A stretch of 64,000 nucleotides of DNA from a virus (IMGVR_UViG_2703718819_000006); one strand, 5' to 3'. Counted from the stretch's first letter, positions 41,201 through 52,016 are shown. Numbers and translations are program-made. Notes: generated by a model from the letters alone, not told the origin.

Positions 41201-41726
41201 AGAAGTTGTCTTTTCCACCCGCTGTAATCAGTGAGCTTATGATTTTTGCAAAATCGTTGCGTTGGAACACGCTACCGATGTCGGAAGTGAGCAGGATGAT
41301 GTTGCCTTTGGCATATGTAGAAACCAACTGTTCGAGCGAGAGACGCGGTACAAAGTAGAACTGTTCTCGTGTGTTGGCCACCGTCATTAGTTCGCAGATG
41401 TCGCGATATCCTTGCTCATTTTTAATTAGAGCGGTAAACGAGTAGTTACGTCCTCGCTCTAATGATTCCATACATCCCTTAGACTCTTTAGCAATTTTAG
41501 CCCGGTACTCGTATGTGGGATCATCAACGATATTTAGTTTCACACCACAAATAACCGCCATGTCGTCACCAGCGGCACGTTGTAGTGGAATAACGCTCGC
41601 AATATTCATGCTATCTGCTGAAATTACAGCGGTGTAGCCAGCTTCTCTGGCAATCTTCACCGCGTTTTCTGCTTTTAGAGCCGACTCCCCAAGTGAGAAG
41701 TCAGTTCGAACCATCAGTGCCTTCAT
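38208..41726 (-). CDS. dnaE: DNA polymerase III alpha subunit-like replicative polymerase (DnaE family, N-terminal PHP domain)
   Basis: 1172 aa; PHP-like N-terminus, GIPVGPGRGSAAGSLVAWC and DIDLDF-type palm motifs. Confidence 0.9.
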   Translation of the reverse strand: MKALMVRTDFSLGESALKAENAVKIAREAGYTAVISADSMNIASVIPLQRAAGDDMAVICGVKLNIVDDPTYEYRAKIAKESKGCMESLERGRNYSFTALIKNEQGYRDICELMTVANTREQFYFVPRLSLEQLVSTYAKGNIILLTSDIGSVFQRNDFAKIISSLITAGGKDNFYSVVYPHPTPFYDQINVRAMKVASALKIEPVAFYPAYYESIDDADIKDIAHMVTNNIKIDQPHRLRIPHQRDNAINGRRHLLEALKAFSVRMDVPVTAAMASTTQDSIIDACTWRWHELPPALPKMADDEPATLMKLAVAGLRKRLTTKEFGYTPPASENRVYVERLKYEMDTLTRLGFCGYFLMVRDLMNHSRETGIPVGPGRGSSAGSLVAWCIGITNVDPIRHGLLFERFINPERLDLPDADLDFSQARRHEVIEYLNERYGEDYVAGIPNFTYLGAASALRDTARIYGVESADMAVSKELKNVEDDSLPLEELREQLASLDKYATKYPDAFNAACKLQSLMRGFGRHAAGMIVAGVPLTERTPVERRGDARCIAFDKRYCEAMGLIKLDVLGLATLDLLDSAKRYIKENTGEDINLDAISLEDRKVLDGFAAGYTQGVFQLESGPMRKLLKDLGGGIEPMSFKTVVATTALFRPGPIQSGMLDDYVSVAKGFMTPESLHPVLDELTAETNGVILYQEQTMNATRLLAGFTMAEADGVRKAIGKKDMEKMKSMGEKFIVQAQAGWIDVELEDGTTQRIHRAEHFKCEDGTLKTVEEALEYGAKLPINAVRVTASHPGLSEMKAKEIWTAFEKNGAYQFNKSHSVAYSLISYQSMWLKTHYPAEFFAAALTILGEDKHQGLVKDALTYGIRVLPPDVNVSSNRIEIRTLEDGSQVLYAPFSAVKGCSENGCQAIMRAREKVGGKFESLAQFEEAVEKRACNSRVRESLQKVGAFASIEPGSLPATDPERLRDQAELMGNLVIDAVKASRPFEMNPKRSAEINVLMTRMAAEMGLGDELIRPSIGIKPKIMIILDNANGNDARTGYFMENGYDDFKAKLLTAGDLRMGDLYVTGVCKKVKDKEKDYTKDEIGQFTDFMREEINLVRPTYVLTCGSRATSLFNNKNKPSDLVGRKEYLPDLDVTVFYGFNPNILYFRPEEGERLEAILADVAETIKS

Positions 41727-45908: not shown

Positions 45909-46295
45909 ATGTCTGATAACAAGATTGAATTTATAGAAAGTCGCTATGCTGCTTTTATCGCAGGGCTGATTGAATCCTCACCTATGAGTCAGGCCCAAAT
46001 AGCCAGACTTATTGGTTATAAAAATGCCAACAACCTTTCTTTAATTAAAAGTGGCAAAATTCCTTTGCCTATCGATAAGGTTCGTCCGTTGGCGCTGGCG
46101 CTGGGTATTGAGCCAAGTCGTCTTATGATGATGGTGCTGGAAGAACGCCAACCTGAACTCGCAGCATTTTTATACAAAGAAGGCACCGCTCCTCTTAACG
46201 AGGACGAAAAACAGGTTCTTGCTGCATATAACGAGCGATTCGGTAAAGAGAAAGGCGCATCACAAAAGGTTGTTGAGGCTATAAAGTCTCTATGA
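45909..46295 (+). CDS. helix-turn-helix (XRE-like) transcriptional regulator
   Basis: HTH segment SQAQIARLIGYKNANNLSLIKSG; convergent with recombinase gene. Confidence 0.6.
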   Translation: MSDNKIEFIESRYAAFIAGLIESSPMSQAQIARLIGYKNANNLSLIKSGKIPLPIDKVRPLALALGIEPSRLMMMVLEERQPELAAFLYKEGTAPLNEDEKQVLAAYNERFGKEKGASQKVVEAIKSL

Positions 46296-47393
46296 AAAAT
46301 TTACACGAATAAGCTCTGTTGATAGACGATCTCCCTTGAATTTGTGGTCAATTTCGTCTAAATCCGGTTGCTCTACGATTGATGCGATGTACGTCGAGAA
46401 ACTTTCTAAGGCGTCTCGCATCTCGTCCATATAATCGTGCCGGTCGTAGACTCGATCTATCCCCTCAAGACTGTGGTTCATGATTTTGCGTGATACCTCC
46501 TGGCTTATGCCTAATGCTGGGAAGTAACTACGCGCAGTACGGCGCAAGTCTCGGGGTGTAAATGGCTCAAGCTCCATCAGTTCTGGTCGTTCCAGAATAC
46601 GACGTAATGCCTGGGCTATTGCCACTTTAGACATAGGAAGGTCTTTCCCGATTTTTTTATTCGAAGGCACGAGCCACTGGCTGCCTTTACCGTATTCGAA
46701 CAACTCTTCAATACATGTGCGCATTAATGTGCTTAAAGGCAGCGAATGCTCACGGGCAGATTTGTTCCTCTTGCCTTGATTCCAAACCCCATGCTTAAGA
46801 TTGAACTCACTTTTTTTAGCCCGCAGTACTTCGTCAGGTCGTCTTGCGGATACAAGACACAGCCTGGCCGCCCATTTTGTACCAGCGCACACATTGAAGT
46901 AGTCCCATATATTCCAGAACACCCATACCTCTGCGTCGGTCAGCTTCCGCTCGCGAGGTGTTGGCTTTGCGCCACCGGCAACTTTGTTAAGTGACATATC
47001 GTTTAACGGTGACACGTCTATCATCCCCTGGAAGGCGCACCAGCTAAGGAACTGCTTCATCAGAGAGAAAACGCGGCGGCCCATAACAATTTTGCCATCC
47101 AGTATTAGTGGGTTGACCAGTTGGTTCACCATGAACCTATTAATGTCACTTACTTTTACATCGGCAATGTGCGGCAAAACATGTATCAAAATACAATGAA
47201 CAGCGATCTCTGGCCGACGTCTTGTTATCAGCAAAGATAAGCGAGTGAATAACATGAATGCGTCCGAGAATCTCATGTCATTGCTGACCTGGGAGATCAT
47301 AACGGCCTGCATTTGAGATGCTCTTTCGAGATACTCAATCGCCTCTTTTGAGGTGTTCTCCGCAGCGCGTGCTCTGTCAAAGCTATTTTTCAT
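46290..47393 (-). CDS. tyrosine site-specific recombinase / integrase
   Basis: C-terminal R..HxxR..Y catalytic pattern (TPRDLRRTARSYF, HSLEGIDRVYDRHDY). Confidence 0.75.
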   Translation of the reverse strand: MKNSFDRARAAENTSKEAIEYLERASQMQAVMISQVSNDMRFSDAFMLFTRLSLLITRRRPEIAVHCILIHVLPHIADVKVSDINRFMVNQLVNPLILDGKIVMGRRVFSLMKQFLSWCAFQGMIDVSPLNDMSLNKVAGGAKPTPRERKLTDAEVWVFWNIWDYFNVCAGTKWAARLCLVSARRPDEVLRAKKSEFNLKHGVWNQGKRNKSAREHSLPLSTLMRTCIEELFEYGKGSQWLVPSNKKIGKDLPMSKVAIAQALRRILERPELMELEPFTPRDLRRTARSYFPALGISQEVSRKIMNHSLEGIDRVYDRHDYMDEMRDALESFSTYIASIVEQPDLDEIDHKFKGDRLSTELIRVNFS

Positions 47394-47491
47394 ATGACAA
47401 TCACCGAGTTACGCCGATGCACTGTATAAGTAAACAGTATATTAGGCATAGATTCTTATAGGATCAAGAGTCAAAGTAACTCATTTTTAGT

Positions 47492-47524
47492 AATGATTCC
47501 ATACATAGTAGGTATGGAATCATT
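47492..47524. promoter_or_regulatory. lox/dif-like recombination site candidate: 13-bp inverted repeats with 7-bp spacer
   Basis: aatgattccatac atagtag gtatggaatcatt, ~100 bp upstream of recombinase gene. Confidence 0.5.
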
Positions 47525-47712
47525 TTAGGTCTAAAATTTAAATCTGTAATATCTATAGAGAGGAATTGCACGAAAACCGATAACCCTTTATAGCGAGGAT
47601 TATTGGTTTATTTTTGTTATGGCGTCGTTGTTCCGCCGGGATTATCAAGTTCGATTTTGAGATTTTGATCAGAGCGTTGGCCCTGTGGGACACTGAAGCT
47701 ATTACTTTTGGA

Positions 47713-48129
47713 TCAGGAGGCGTGAAACTTTTCTGCAACGTCTGAAAAAAACTTTAGCAACCTAGTATCTCTAGCAGACATGCGATCGTGAGCTGGAGTG
47801 ACTAAACCCATCAGCAAATAACGGCCGCTCTCCCACATATGCTCGGTATAGATGAGATAGTGATCTGAGGTTCGATTGTAGTTTTCTTGCCTTGCAGTCC
47901 AAGTTAACTGGTAATGCAAATTTACATGAATATGTTGGACGTTAGCGTCAACGGCAAACGGAGGAAAGTCGAATGGCGCATCCCTACCGAGAAGGTTGGA
48001 CGGCTTACCCGTGGATTTGTAGGTAATGAACTCAGTTTTGAGCTGACTTTCCAGATCAGGATAAACGACAAACGTGGGTTGAAAAAAATCAACCCACGTA
48101 TCTTGACTGTATTCAGCCGTCAATGCCAT
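47713..48129 (-). CDS. hypothetical protein; possible YafO-family toxin-like (weak, from memory)
   Basis: Motifs GRDAPFD, HIHV, RTSDHYLIY, YLLMGLVTPAHD; overlaps upstream gene by 10 nt. Confidence 0.3.
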   Translation of the reverse strand: MALTAEYSQDTWVDFFQPTFVVYPDLESQLKTEFITYKSTGKPSNLLGRDAPFDFPPFAVDANVQHIHVNLHYQLTWTARQENYNRTSDHYLIYTEHMWESGRYLLMGLVTPAHDRMSARDTRLLKFFSDVAEKFHAS

Positions 48130-48668
48130 TTAGCCGCAGCCTTGTTGCCAGTCATCAATAGATGGTTCATGGCAGAAAGGTTCACGCCAGACTCACGCAC
48201 ACAAGAGGTGCGAGTAATCTGATCAATCAGATTTAGATAATTTTTGGCGGCAATACTGACCATTTTAATAGCTTTAAAGAAGGCAAACTCTACAGCGTTT
48301 TTGTCGTAAGACAAAATGACGTCTTTTTCAGGTAACATCAAAACGAAAGATTCTGCGATACCGGCTACATGAATAGTTTGATTCTTAATTTCTTCCGCTA
48401 CATTGATAGCAGCAAAGAAGTCAGTATCAGCATAACGAGCAAGTTCAGCGCGGCTTGCGCGAAGTTCTGTCGCTAGCTCATTAAGGGCTGCTGTAAGATC
48501 ACTGATGTCGGTTTTATTGACTCTAGCGCCCATCTCATAAACCCGCTCTACAATAGTAGGCTGACACGCAACCGCTTTTGGTTGCGGCTGGATACTGGCA
48601 AGAACCAGTGCCACTGCTGCCTGTAAATGCTGGATTTTAAATTTCACGATAGACTCCATTGTCGTCAT
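48120..48668 (-). CDS. hypothetical protein (upstream partner of 47713..48129)
   Basis: ORF track. Confidence 0.45.
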   Translation of the reverse strand: MTTMESIVKFKIQHLQAAVALVLASIQPQPKAVACQPTIVERVYEMGARVNKTDISDLTAALNELATELRASRAELARYADTDFFAAINVAEEIKNQTIHVAGIAESFVLMLPEKDVILSYDKNAVEFAFFKAIKMVSIAAKNYLNLIDQITRTSCVRESGVNLSAMNHLLMTGNKAAAKWH

Positions 48669-48795
48669 TTCTCGACGAGGCGTAGCATTCTACTACTGAA
48701 TCTAACTATAAGCTAAAAAAACTTGGTTGCATATGCGACTTAGACTGCAAAACACGAAATGAAAAATTAAAGGCCGCTTTCACGGCCCTTTAAAG

Positions 48796-49041
48796 TCAAA
48801 GTGTGCTGACATGTGCTGCCAGTTCTGTGTATCCGCCAATCGGTTGACCATCGATCAGCACTTGGGGGATAGTCTCTACCGGTTTACCAACAATTTCACT
48901 TAGTTTTTTCTTGTCGATACCGGCAGTGGTGATGTCTATGTACTCATAATCACCGTAGCCATGTCCCTTTAGTTGCTTCGCCAGCTCGACCGCACGTTTG
49001 CAGTATGAGCAGTTATCTCGTCCGTAGATAGTGATCGTCAT
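48796..49041 (-). CDS. glutaredoxin-like protein
   Basis: CSYC active site in thioredoxin-fold context. Confidence 0.75.
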   Translation of the reverse strand: MTITIYGRDNCSYCKRAVELAKQLKGHGYGDYEYIDITTAGIDKKKLSEIVGKPVETIPQVLIDGQPIGGYTELAAHVSTL

Positions 49042-49388
49042 TGCTTTGCCTCATGCCACTTTTGCTTCAGGAGATAGCCTTCCAGGGGCCAGATTTGATC
49101 GATAGCATCTTTTCGAGCGTACTCGCGACCAACATCAAAGTTGAAGATTTCTGGTCTTACGCACGCAGATTTTCCCGTTACGGTATATCCATTTTTGAGA
49201 ACCATAACGCAGAACGTTAAGAGTTTTAACGACTCATGACCTTTGTCGATATCTGTTTTTGAATTGTAAACAGAGATGAAGTTATCCCCGTGGCTGGCAT
49301 CATATGCAGTGAAATAATGTTCACTTTGAATGAGTTGTTCAATGTGTTCAGGGGTGACTTTTAGTGGTGTGTTCTCTTTGCTGGTCAT
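49038..49388 (-). CDS. hypothetical protein
   Basis: ORF track; ATGA overlap with glutaredoxin gene. Confidence 0.5.
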   Translation of the reverse strand: MTSKENTPLKVTPEHIEQLIQSEHYFTAYDASHGDNFISVYNSKTDIDKGHESLKLLTFCVMVLKNGYTVTGKSACVRPEIFNFDVGREYARKDAIDQIWPLEGYLLKQKWHEAKQ

Positions 49389-49434
49389 TATTTCTTCCTA
49401 CAAAGTTCGTAGACTTGACTCTTTCAGTTGCAAA

Positions 49435-49454
49435 AAAGGGGCCGAAGCCCCTTT
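49435..49454. terminator. rho-independent terminator (bidirectional-looking), closes the tRNA transcription unit
   Basis: aaaggggc cgaa gcccctttt with U-run on minus strand. Confidence 0.65.
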
Positions 49455-49608
49455 GAATTTTGCGCTGAAAAAAGTGTTGCTAGGATGTTAGCAAGCTATG
49501 GTTAAGAACGTCTGCCGTAATTGTCTATCACAGCGTTGAGCGGTCTGGTTTATGTTAGCGGAGTCTTAATCTGGGTGATTAAAAGGCCAAACCGCTCAAC
49601 GCTGTGTC

Positions 49609-49695
49609 TGGCGGAGAGTAATGGAATCGAACCATCATCGCTTGCGCAATGGGACGGTTTTCAAGACCGCTTGAGCACCATGCTCCCTACTCTCC
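49609..49695 (-). tRNA. tRNA-Ser (anticodon TGA), type II with long variable arm
   Basis: Hand-folded: acceptor GGAGAGT/ACTCTCC, anticodon loop CTTGAAA, T-loop GGTTCGATTCC, encoded GCCA 3' end. Confidence 0.7.
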
Positions 49696-50341
49696 AATTG
49701 TTGTGGTGCCGGGTGCCTCCCGGTGTCCTTTGGCTGGTTATCCACCGTGAACGGGGCCACAGATGTCATAAGATGAGCAATATAACCATTTCCCCGCGTG
49801 CGCTTAGCCGCATTCACCACAACGGAAAGAGCATTCACATCTCGCGTGCCGCCACGAATAGCAACTCAGAGAGTCGAACTCTGAAAATGCTCTTACCTGT
49901 TGTGTGCTGTGTCACTCCCTCCGCTATTACCTGGCTTTGCCTCGACCTTTTAGGTTGCGTCCGATGATAAACAGGGCTGTCGGAAATTTGTCTGTGGCAC
50001 AGCGATAAGAGAACTCGATGCATTTAAGCCAAGCCCCATATGGGAAGTTCTCTTATCTGTTGTGCGCTCCGTTTCGTGGAGCTAACGGCGGGTGAACAGG
50101 CCGCACCAGGTTGGACATATTTCAGCGTTATGCTGTTGCAAGAGAGCCAAATTGTGATGGTCGGTGCTGAACTCCGACACAGGGTTGTAGCAAGCCCCGC
50201 AAAGCGCGCACTACTGTAGTTACGGCACATCAGCCTGTGCATTCATCACAATGTTGAGAACACTGGTTGTCACGCGGCAACGCAACATTTATTCATAAAT
50301 TGGGATATGAACCCGTTACGCCAATGTTCTCAATATTATGT

Positions 50342-50417
50342 TGGTGCCGGTTAACGGACTTGAACCGCTGGCCATTCGCTTACAAAGCGACTGCTCTACC
50401 AACTGAGCTAAACCGGC
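50342..50417 (-). tRNA. tRNA-Thr (anticodon TGT)
   Basis: Hand-folded: acceptor GCCGGTT/AACCGGC, D-arm GCTCAGTTGGTAGAGC, anticodon loop TTTGTAA, encoded CCA. Confidence 0.7.
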
Positions 50418-50421
50418 AATT

Positions 50422-50508
50422 TGGTGGGGAGTGATGGAGTCGAACCACCCGAGTCGCAATGACGGTAGATTTACAGTCTACACCGCTACCTCTACGGACT
50501 AACTCCCC
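50422..50508 (-). tRNA. tRNA-Tyr (anticodon GTA), type II
   Basis: Anticodon arm GTAGA-CTGTAAA-TCTAC, T-loop GGTTCGACTCC, acceptor GGGGAGT/ACTCCCC, encoded CCA. Confidence 0.75.
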
Positions 50509-50513
50509 TAAAT

Positions 50514-50588
50514 TGGCGATGGTGGGTGGATTCGAACCACCGACCAGTTGGTTAACAGCCAACTGCTCTACCGCTGAGCTACACCATC
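50514..50588 (-). tRNA. tRNA-Asn (anticodon GTT)
   Basis: Anticodon arm GTTGG-CTGTTAA-CCAAC, T-loop GGTTCGAATCC, acceptor GATGGTG/CACCATC. Confidence 0.75.
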
Positions 50589-51364
50589 AATTCAGCACTG
50601 CCAGTATTTATTACTCAACAGTGCCAATCGCGGCGGTGTTAGTTTCTGCCAGGAAACGCACCGCTACTTGCACTTTCCGTTAGTGCCAGACGTTTTCGAC
50701 TTCGCTCAATAGAAGGCAAAATCTTTAAGTAGATGATGTTTCTGAGGACAGCACCTACTTTGTAATTCATACAATGTGATGTATGGAATCATTTGTTGTG
50801 AAAACAGGCACCAATGGCAACAGTGGTTAAACCTACACAACAATCCTGTCTTCACAACGTTGAGGCCACTACTCCGATTGAATGTTTGCCCAACATGTTA
50901 CATATCAACGCTCGCCGGTATCTCTGTGAATAGAACCTTAGAATTGATAAAAATGTAATGGCCTCAACGTTGTGTGCTGGCTAACCATACCAGCCGGGCT
51001 ACGTCGCCGCTTTTTAACCCAGTATAAACGACATAATTAAACAAAATGACGTAACAGGATGGGCGGTCAGTGGCTAAGAATCCGGGAGTCATATGGAGTT
51101 GAAAATATACCAACCGCCCATTCTGTTACTTCATCGGAGGGAACATGAATGTTCCCTCCTGCGTTCTGCAATCACACTCGCTCAGTGTGTCCCATTTCGG
51201 TAACGAGGCTGGAAACTGACCTCGCTGGTGTTTGGCTTATTAGGCTACTGCCAGATAGACTTCTTCGTTTGCACTTGTATTTAAGTTCAAACAGTCGCGT
51301 CTCAACGAAAACAAAGTCATCTTATACACAAAAGATAAGTAAGTAAATACTTATCAATATGTTT

Positions 51365-51655
51365 TTATTCGGTTGTGACTTTTTTGATCAAGGCCACTCT
51401 ACGACTAGGTGTTCTTGTAATGGTGGCAGTGAATCGTTTCGCTTGGATAGTAATGGTTTCGTTCTCCTTAAGTTGCCCGTAGCGAGTTTCCACCAGGGTG
51501 CCAAGACGCCACAGACCATCATCGATACGTTTATGACTAGCAAATTTAATCAGCAACAGTTTTACGACTAACTGACCTACGTAAAAGGCGAATGCGACTC
51601 CGGCCGCTAAGAAATAGGTGGCCAACCACCATTCCCAAGAAGTTAAATTGCTCAT
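51365..51655 (-). CDS. membrane protein, hypothetical
   Basis: ORF track; N-terminal TM helix. Confidence 0.45.
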   Translation of the reverse strand: MSNLTSWEWWLATYFLAAGVAFAFYVGQLVVKLLLIKFASHKRIDDGLWRLGTLVETRYGQLKENETITIQAKRFTATITRTPSRRVALIKKVTTE

Positions 51656-51804
51656 TTTTTCACCTTTGTTTCATGAACTACCCGATACACACGCTTTCCA
51701 ATGCACAGTGTTTTGGTTTTAAGTTCCTGCTTAATTAAATCACGACAGATGCCGAAGCCGATAAGGAAGCCACCCATAAAAGCTAATGAGATGTATGGAA
51801 TCAT
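51652..51804 (-). CDS. small hydrophobic protein (50 aa); its start codon lies in the repeated ATGATTCCATAC motif
   Basis: ATGA overlaps with both neighbours. Confidence 0.3.
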   Translation of the reverse strand: MIPYISLAFMGGFLIGFGICRDLIKQELKTKTLCIGKRVYRVVHETKVKK

Positions 51805-52016
51805 TTTAACGCTCCTGATTCTACTAATTGCTGTAGCAATACTTTCCCTTTATCAGTTAACTGGTAGTTGGCCGAACACCACGTTTCAGAAACGTTTGCA
51901 ACCAACCCTAAACGCTCTAACTTAGCTCGCGTTTTAGGCTTCCAGTACTCAGGGAACTCCGGCCACTTACTGATTTCATGAAGCGTTTCCTTCTCCCGTT
52001 TACTTAATACGATCAT
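51801..52016 (-). CDS. hypothetical protein
   Basis: ORF track. Confidence 0.45.
   Translation of the reverse strand: MIVLSKREKETLHEISKWPEFPEYWKPKTRAKLERLGLVANVSETWCSANYQLTDKGKVLLQQLVESGALK

Follow-up and report, generated by a model that had tools for sequence, protein, structure and literature searches.

The stretch of viral DNA analysed here (IMGVR_UViG_2703718819_000006, 64,000 nucleotides; hereafter the window) encodes a tyrosine recombinase whose gene, int, lies beside a perfect 33-bp palindrome, and single copies of the palindrome arm, which we call half-sites, recur on both sides of this pair. Judged by its sequence, the window is a phage-plasmid of the SSU5/pHCM2/pMT1 type: in a sequence search, Escherichia phage Cyrano (the pLF82 phage-plasmid) and CMS-2020a were 97–98% identical to the region, and Klebsiella phage-plasmids and Salmonella phage SSU5 were more distant relatives. 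The gene order around the palindrome is DNA polymerase III alpha (dnaE), a CobS-like gene, a CobT-like gene, an open reading frame (ORF) of 70 amino acids, a gene for a helix-turn-helix (HTH) protein, int, a block of cargo genes, tRNAs, small ORFs, DNA ligase, primase and helicase, all on the minus strand except the HTH gene. We compared the window with 71 loci drawn from a viral contig collection, with the recombinase protein as query, and with annotated phage records. The recombinase, the palindrome and the half-sites lie as follows.

46290..47393, minus strand: tyrosine recombinase ('integrase') of 367 amino acids, with core-binding and catalytic domains (Pfam PF00589, weak PF22022; phrog_1 integrase).
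47492..47524, no strand: proposed core recombination site, the perfect 13-7-13 palindrome AATGATTCCATAC-ATAGTAG-GTATGGAATCATT, from sequence and comparison.
47525..47550, no strand: int-distal flank of the palindrome, a hypervariable linker of 8–9 nt followed by a T/A-rich element (T-run, GAA/AAA, TCT), from comparison of flanks.
41461..41476, minus strand: half-site S1, GATGTATGGAATCATT, within dnaE, codons TGT-ATG-GAA-TCA (Cys-Met-Glu-Ser), from a comparison of 34 sequences.
46776..46787, minus strand: decayed half-site within int, GTTTGGAATCAA, codons V-W-N-Q, with two mismatches in the window's lineage.
50778..50793, plus strand: half-site S4, inside the conserved structured leader of tRNA-Asn and about 190 bp ahead of that gene in the sense of transcription.
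51790..51805, plus strand: half-site S5, over the ATG and first five codons (MIPYI) of a 50-residue ORF (51652..51804, minus strand; phrog_6302), from comparison.

The palindrome begins 99 bp upstream of the recombinase ATG (47393), which confirms the perfect 13-7-13 repeat that an initial annotation of this DNA had placed about 100 bp upstream of the gene. The 13-mer GTATGGAATCATT was matched exactly five times in the window, at 47492(-), 47512(+), 50781(+), 51793(+) and 41461(-); 100 dinucleotide shuffles averaged 0.01 matches, and not one of them had five. Two of these, at 50781 and 51793, are the same-orientation recurrences that had been noticed before; the copy at 41461(-) had been missed. 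The complete 108-kb genome of Cyrano has the same five copies only, all of them inside 9.2 kb around the recombinase gene. Exactly one palindrome was found, at the same place, in all 75 related loci that retain the region upstream of int, as in the window, and its arms were essentially invariant across this set. The spacer was 7 bp long in all 76 sites with GTATGGAATCA arms and took eight different sequences (ATAGTAG in 40, TTAATAG in 20, CTTACAA in 8 and five rarer ones), so that the element consists of two inverted arms around a spacer of fixed length and free sequence, as in core sites of the lox and dif type. Motif searches at one to three mismatches revealed no second full site in any locus examined.

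Comparison with more diverged recombinases showed that the site changes with the enzyme. A relative with a 56% identical recombinase has TTGATTCCATAC-TATATAA-GTATGGAATCAA, and the core arms are unchanged in Nissabacter and Serratia relatives, whose int products are 59–60% identical. Homologues at 44–52% identity carry GTCTGGAGTCA as the arm, and the site keeps its 7-bp spacer and its place, 30–130 bp upstream of int; such arms were found in Xenorhabdus, in Providencia, on an Erwinia plasmid, on a 508-kb Pantoea plasmid and on a metagenomic plasmid, and Photorhabdus has an intermediate arm, GTCTGGAATCA. Site specificity thus co-varies with the recombinase, the arms being GTATGGAATCA where int is at least 56% identical and GTCTGGAGTCA at 44–52%. 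The Erwinia and Pantoea copies of int and the palindrome stand on plain plasmids with no phage genes and no HTH neighbour, and the constant partner of the palindrome is therefore the recombinase gene. The earlier proposal of a Cre/Xer-type core site for the adjacent recombinase gains support from these comparisons: the arm diverges in step with the enzyme, the spacer length of 7 bp and the placement upstream of int stay constant, and the pair also occurs on non-phage plasmids.

The immediate surroundings of the arms vary more than the arms themselves. Next to the left arm, positions -4, -2 and -1 were highly polymorphic in the E. coli group, and among near-identical E. coli plasmids (loci L007–L074) three of the four columns at 47488–47491 had a diversity above 0.2, compared with 37 of 1300 background columns. 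The 8–9 nt beside the right arm (47525–47533) are likewise a hot spot of polymorphism. Beyond this linker, a T-run, GAA/AAA and TCT are common to otherwise unrelated distal flanks, including those of the Nissabacter, Xenorhabdus and Providencia relatives, and the functional site may reach about 25 bp past the distal arm. We also observed that the 7-bp spacer was twice, independently, the exact reverse complement in otherwise identical contexts (L004 compared with L038, and L068 compared with the TTAATAG group). Short hairpin loops between perfect inverted repeats are known to flip in such a manner, and a resolution system with one site per plasmid would be indifferent to the orientation of its spacer.

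A palindrome beside a regulatory gene could instead be an operator, with the motif recognized by the neighbouring HTH protein or by another phage protein, the palindrome serving as a dimer operator and the single copies as monomer operators, comparable to those of P1 C1. The candidate regulator is the following gene.

45909..46295, plus strand: HTH protein of 128 amino acids, convergent with int (weak HTH_19 match; phrog_8 transcriptional regulator; annotated in Cyrano as 'putative repressor').

This gene is expressed in the lysogen at 10x background (PMC9928086). In addition, a plausible int promoter (TTGATC-17 bp-TAATAT, recognized by eye from the sequence) follows closely on the palindrome, and the half-sites are asymmetric and dispersed, persisting in SSU5 and L120, which have no int. 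These two genomes also lack the HTH gene, so their half-sites do not favour the HTH protein over the recombinase as the binding partner. The HTH gene adjoins int in the phage-plasmids but not on the Erwinia and Pantoea plasmids that carry int and the palindrome, and the arm sequence follows the divergence of int. The geometry, 20 bp from centre to centre with a fixed 7-bp spacer of free sequence, is typical of a recombinase core and not of an HTH dimer operator; moreover, there are only five copies in 108 kb, mostly within coding sequence and not at promoters. The operator reading is therefore, in our view, unlikely. A genome-wide operator set like that of P1 C1 was rejected, as no copies lie beyond the 9.2-kb stretch of Cyrano.

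The recombinase matched Pfam PF00589 with an E value of 4e-10 (40.1 bits against a cut-off of 27.1), and in a 15-sequence alignment of its family R185, K211, R284, H307 and Y316, residues expected of a tyrosine recombinase, were invariant or nearly so. Its closest relatives outside the family are P4-type integrases (25–34% identity) that have an N-terminal arm-binding domain, PF13356; this domain is missing from all members of the recombinase family and present in the P4-like outgroup. An AlphaFold model (mean pLDDT 83.7) has the two-domain fold, core-binding plus catalytic, and a Foldseek comparison with the PDB gave lambda Int 75–356 as the best match (E=1e-7, TM about 0.6–0.75), followed by Tn1549 Int, Xer and IntI, whereas Cre, with an E value of about 1e-2, was a far weaker match. 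Searching the PDB by sequence with the recombinase returned no match. These data mark the enzyme as a divergent 'simple' tyrosine recombinase of lambda/P4 ancestry. Lambda Int uses a 7-bp overlap region, and such an ancestry fits the 7-bp crossover region proposed here. The likeness to the lambda and P4 integrases with their C-O-C' core thus covers the closest fold, the nearest sequence relatives and a 7-bp crossover region with inverted core-type sites; unlike those systems, this one has no N-terminal arm-binding domain, arm-type sites or attB, and its arms are perfect 13-bp repeats where theirs are short and imperfect.

To see where the pair resides, we surveyed bacterial genomes and plasmids. 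Of 5426 complete E. coli genomes, 215 contained the site region, at 217 places in total; every place was on a plasmid of about 100–155 kb, and none of the 5426 genomes had a chromosomal copy. The region comprising int and the palindrome was present in 837 plasmids of PLSDB, 802 of which are predicted to be non-mobilizable; by genus, these were Klebsiella (348), Escherichia (231), Enterobacter (92), Yersinia (63) and Salmonella (49). The name 'integrase' and the P4-type integrases nearest to the family would suit a palindrome that acts as attP for chromosomal integration. This is highly improbable, because every E. coli copy is on a plasmid, the arm-binding domain is missing, the palindrome is perfect and has no arm-type repeats around it, and the module also occurs on ordinary plasmids. 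The genomes surveyed gave no sign of an attB or of integrated copies, and a lambda/P4 attP would go with an arm-binding domain, arm-type sites and attB, none of which we found.

Two further observations concern the presence of the module. In Klebsiella pneumoniae pF132_1 (L287, CP026146; 21188–22923), a group II intron (ltrA) lies between the int start codon and the promoter/palindrome region. Some records have two matches to the int region and might have been taken to carry a second site; in the one examined, what splits the match is a group II intron and not a second site. SSU5 (L085, NC_018843, 9182–11763) has no 70-aa ORF, no HTH gene, no int, no palindrome and no cargo, and its CobT-like gene abuts tRNA-Asn. 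SSU5 has been reported to be virulent (PMC5427195). A virulent phage without int and the site is compatible with a role in plasmid maintenance and proves nothing.

On the int-distal side of the palindrome lies a region of variable content. The possible YafO-like pair, glutaredoxin and tRNA cluster that had been placed there are indeed present.

47525..50513, no strand: variable cargo region (YafO toxin pair, glutaredoxin, gp49-like gene, tRNA-Ser, P1-like insert, tRNA-Thr, tRNA-Tyr).
47713..48129: YafO toxin (Pfam E=2.7e-21).
48796..49041: glutaredoxin ORF (grx).
49609–50588, minus strand: four tRNAs.

Homology of the window to Cyrano, both CMS-2020a records, PhiR41_1 and the Klebsiella phages stops at 47524–47529, and across all comparisons the matches of nearly all relatives end at 47523–47532, the outer edge of the int-distal arm. 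The same edge was seen in the larger surveys, with matches ending at query positions 55–63 (query start 47470) in nearly all of the 215 E. coli plasmids and at query positions 1234–1237 (query start 46290) in 788 PLSDB plasmids. At least 15 unrelated distal flanks begin at one and the same nucleotide. Homology resumes near the grx and tRNA genes, at 48787, 48817, 48823, 49431, 49529, 50051, 50341 or 50513, and at no motif copy. The initial annotation had named breakpoints at the motif copies as a test; on the int side the break does fall at the edge of the palindrome, but the far ends, spread over 48787–50513, do not coincide with copies, and the variable region closes near tRNA-Asn. Accessory genes have a hot spot here, with the palindrome as its fixed edge. 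Across 18 representative loci, 72 gene families were counted in the cargo segment, including the YafO pair, AbiGi, a SASA-type esterase, fimbrial genes and PhoH. Published surveys have located resistance genes of these elements close to PhoH, to the DNA ligase gene and to the tRNA loci. A Cyrano gene at the cargo position was 723-fold above background in RNA-seq of the lysogen (PMC9928086). An edge that is sharp on one side and diffuse on the other would be expected from exchange between co-resident relatives at the site, followed by homologous resolution elsewhere.

The initial annotation had proposed that three motif copies bracket a mobile unit of about 4.3 kb, so that they would be the crossover sites of an integron-like cassette or a resolved insertion holding the toxin pair, the glutaredoxin, the tRNAs and the small ORFs. 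One border of the variable region does fall exactly at the palindrome, its cargo is highly diverse and includes defence and toxin genes, and the right arm recurs in direct orientation at 50781 and 51793. Nevertheless, the 50781 and 51793 copies sit in conserved sequence and the roughly 1 kb between them is core, the right-hand breakpoints avoid the copies, and each locus has a single full site. Tyrosine recombinases need matching crossover regions, and the 7 bp beside the half-sites (ATGTGAT and ATGAGAT) match the spacer ATAGTAG at only three of seven positions. The predicted deletion or inversion product was present in no relative; the next motif copy lay between 1196 and 6731 bp from the palindrome. 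Integron cassettes are each bounded by attC and arrayed at attI, whereas the cargo blocks here end at grx or tRNA genes, and we noticed no repeated attC-like element at gene-block boundaries, without a search aimed at attC. The bracketed mobile unit did not hold up against these comparisons, and we consider a recombinase-mobilised cassette very unlikely. In PhiR41_1, all DNA from the palindrome to past the ligase gene has been replaced and one diverged homologue of the 50781 copy is kept within the new DNA, which argues that this copy is needed in place and is not a junction.

In and around the cargo we made several separate observations. Between tRNA-Ser and tRNA-Thr, the sequence at 49700–50357 has about 89% identity with the upl/plp region of P1 and related punaviruses, which suggests exchange between two different phage-plasmid families. 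The 12-mer CTCAACGYTGTG (six matches, 0.6 expected) forms two long inverted repeats, at 49529–49606 and 50853–50974, whose 20-nt arms are separated by 38 and 82 nt; they stand on either side of the tRNA block and coincide with mosaic breakpoints at 49529 (L003) and at 50851 (L052 and Yersinia pestis plasmids). A scan with Rfam returned only tRNAs and sub-threshold matches, among them STnc100 at 49673–49845 on the minus strand (42.5 bits against a gathering threshold of 47), which overlaps the flank of tRNA-Ser.

Next, we turned to the single copies of the arm, which have a longer 16-mer in common, GATGTATGGAATCATT (41461–41476, 50778–50793 and 51790–51805). Within dnaE, 14 nt of the half-site were invariant in 34 distinct sequences, and neighbouring third positions and flanking amino acids varied. 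The same DnaE loop differs in sequence in Xenorhabdus and Providencia, which lack the half-site; therefore, the DNA element constrains the DnaE protein and not the reverse. Chance or a coding coincidence is excluded by the five matches against 0.01 expected, by the fixed synonymous sites in dnaE and by the loss of loop conservation in relatives without the site. A scan of a genome collection with the 14-mer GATGTATGGAATCA was dominated by chance matches; one of the matches listed is the dnaE copy in a contig (about 108 kb) of Yersinia pestis with homology to the dnaE region of the window. We also observed a 9-bp tandem duplication (ATGAGATGT twice) adjoining the dnaE half-site in L010. The copy inside int, decayed in the window, has the exact form GTATGGAATCA(A/G), usually preceded by GAT, in the majority of lineages outside the E. 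coli group and in the relative with 56% identity.

To the right of the palindrome, S4 has flanks that are conserved on both sides in most lineages. It is missing from L052 and L053, and in the Yersinia pestis plasmids homology to the S4 region begins only at 50851. The roughly 400-nt leader upstream of tRNA-Asn that contains the 50781 half-site (50589–50990, minus strand) has a predicted fold with z=-5.9 relative to shuffles and is conserved across lineages; either a processed leader or an RNA without annotation may be encoded there. S5 has 15 invariant nucleotides between flanks that both diverge, and the sole change seen in it was a synonymous first-base G-to-A in L033 and L039. The initial annotation had each motif copy supply the start codon of a short ORF, which is true at 51793 (the ATG of the conserved 50-residue phrog_6302 ORF) but not at 50781, where the ORF is not conserved and runs to 5–28 codons depending on the lineage. 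A consensus scan for sigma-70 promoters and terminators gave nothing consistent at the sites. We tried and rejected the idea that a second, weak arm turns each half-site into a full asymmetric site: only the 50781 copy of the E. coli group has anything of the kind, an incomplete arm (TAATTCATAC) across a gap of 8 bp that pairs with that copy in the predicted leader fold.

From the core, the half-sites lie about 730 bp away in int, 1.2–6.7 kb away at the 50781 copy, about 1 kb further at the 51793 copy (986–1025 bp from the 50781 copy in nearly all relatives) and about -6.0 to -6.3 kb away in dnaE; in the window these distances are 0.7, 3.3, 4.3 and 6.0 kb. In every locus they are mirror-oriented, the left copies (dnaE and int) reading as the left arm and the right copies (50781 and 51793) as the right arm, so that each is a direct repeat of the nearer palindrome arm. 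They are invariant across lineages whose recombinases are only 56–60% identical, and their synonymous positions are fixed; the half-sites are under constraint at the level of DNA. In PLSDB the int region was found in 837 plasmids and the 50590–51850 region in 784, nearly the same set with the same distribution among genera.

Additional copies of a recombinase motif are known elsewhere, in the third 13-bp element of FRT, in DR1 and DR2 of the Tn4430 TnpI resolution site and in DR1 and DR2 of integron attI1. As in those sites, the extra copies here are direct repeats of the nearer arm, in all loci. Unlike them, with their accessory sites within about 100 bp of the core, the copies here are at a distance of kilobases or nearly so, three of the half-sites stand inside coding sequences, and more distant relatives have none. 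The shufflon recombined by Rci has multiple sfx sites, each with a single conserved arm beside a 7-bp region, and the several single-arm copies here are likewise each next to a 7-bp region. The 7-bp regions differ between copies here, however, and among more than 140 related loci there were no inverted or deleted isoforms; site order and orientation are identical in all of them. Our best guess from these comparisons is that the half-sites are sites of single-monomer binding by the recombinase, regulatory or architectural, and probably not crossover points.

The start codons raise a further alternative, in which the motif acts as RNA, the palindrome being a transcribed hairpin (a terminator or small RNA) and the single copies its complementary targets in mRNAs, including start codons. 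A 13-bp stem would be stable, and the minus-strand copies contain AUG, which at 51793 is a true start codon. Against this, the arms are invariant with no compensatory substitutions, and when they do change, both become the same new sequence along with the recombinase. In most lineages no T-run directly follows the stem, and the consensus scan found no terminator there; the single copies occur in both senses on the transcribed strand, both arms of the hairpin would be sequestered, and the element has no Rfam match. An RNA-level function is accordingly hard to credit.

Taken together, we favour, with some confidence, the reading that the palindrome is the core crossover site of the adjacent recombinase, with a lox-like function in plasmid maintenance, and that the half-sites are extra sites for recombinase monomers. 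In such a mechanism, each inverted 13-bp arm would be occupied by one of two recombinase monomers and strand exchange would take place across the 7-bp spacer, and the half-sites in dnaE, in int (decayed here), ahead of the tRNA operon and over the ATG of the small ORF would each bind a single monomer. The palindrome would be the counterpart of loxP in the Cre system of P1, where multimers of the plasmid would be resolved and infecting DNA perhaps cyclised. Recombination at or very close to the palindrome between co-resident relatives, together with selection for an intact site, would make its int-distal edge a fixed border of accessory genes. The pair is always plasmid-borne (217 of 217 places), with one full site per locus, no chromosomal partner and no arm-binding domain, and multimer resolution or cyclisation is therefore its most likely job. 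Cre/loxP likewise has no arm-binding domain and no chromosomal partner, and there too a plasmid-prophage tyrosine recombinase stands beside two 13-bp inverted arms with a short asymmetric spacer. The enzyme here has no detectable sequence relationship to Cre and only a weak fold match to it, is of P4-type descent and is a predicted recombinase; unlike loxP, the spacer has 7 bp instead of 8, and dispersed half-sites are not a loxP feature.

Several points weigh against this proposal. Binding and catalysis by the recombinase, the resolution function and any role of the half-sites are what we infer from sequence. Arg281 replaces the first catalytic histidine throughout the family; that position is the least conserved of the catalytic set. 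The sharp border would be equally expected if the palindrome were merely the last constrained base of a conserved int module, and homologous exchange with a crossover point that cannot be located could produce it with no need for site-specific exchange. To our knowledge, half-sites at 0.7–6 kb from the core have no precedent among known accessory sites. No extra copies were found within 10 kb on either side in the relatives with GTCTGGAGTCA arms, and the half-sites are therefore an addition specific to one clade and not part of the basic recombination machinery. The mirror orientation of the four sites has only about a 1-in-8 chance value. Finally, int-less SSU5 and L120 still have half-sites, and another protein may bind them; SSU5 keeps those in dnaE and at the small-ORF start, and its copy in the tRNA leader reads GTACGGAATCA, with a single mismatch. 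Among the sites checked, one of six in SSU5 and L120 is mutated, compared with roughly two of about 200 in int-bearing genomes, counts that are too few to decide.

It is possible, though we doubt it, that the recombinase doubles as a sequence-specific DNA-binding regulator or roadblock, acting through the oriented arm copies in dnaE, in int, before the tRNA/accessory operon and on a start codon, mirrored about the resolution site. Such a protein would tie plasmid maintenance to the lytic replication module, either to its expression or to its replication. In a milder form of this idea, the lox-like site would drive accessory exchange between co-resident phage-plasmids of the pMT1/pHCM2/SSU5 family. 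The papers searched give no description of the site or of a role for this 'integrase', although the gene is annotated throughout the family, and we found no paper with the motif in this context.

Overall, the comparisons point to a simple recombinase/site pair of lambda/P4 ancestry in a large family of plasmid-prophages, with unusual half-sites that are dispersed, conserved and oriented. This family includes the roughly 100-kb plasmids of Yersinia pestis, relatives of Salmonella Typhi pHCM2 and hundreds of plasmids of Klebsiella, E. coli and Enterobacter. For these elements, the defined 33-bp site offers a maintenance function that is directly testable, and the pair may be a new orthogonal recombinase/site system. 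The border at the palindrome accounts for accessory genes that start at one exact nucleotide, among them toxin-antitoxin pairs, abortive-infection genes, fimbriae and genes highly expressed in the lysogen. The half-sites within coding sequence, if they are bound, would represent a new use of a recombinase recognition motif.

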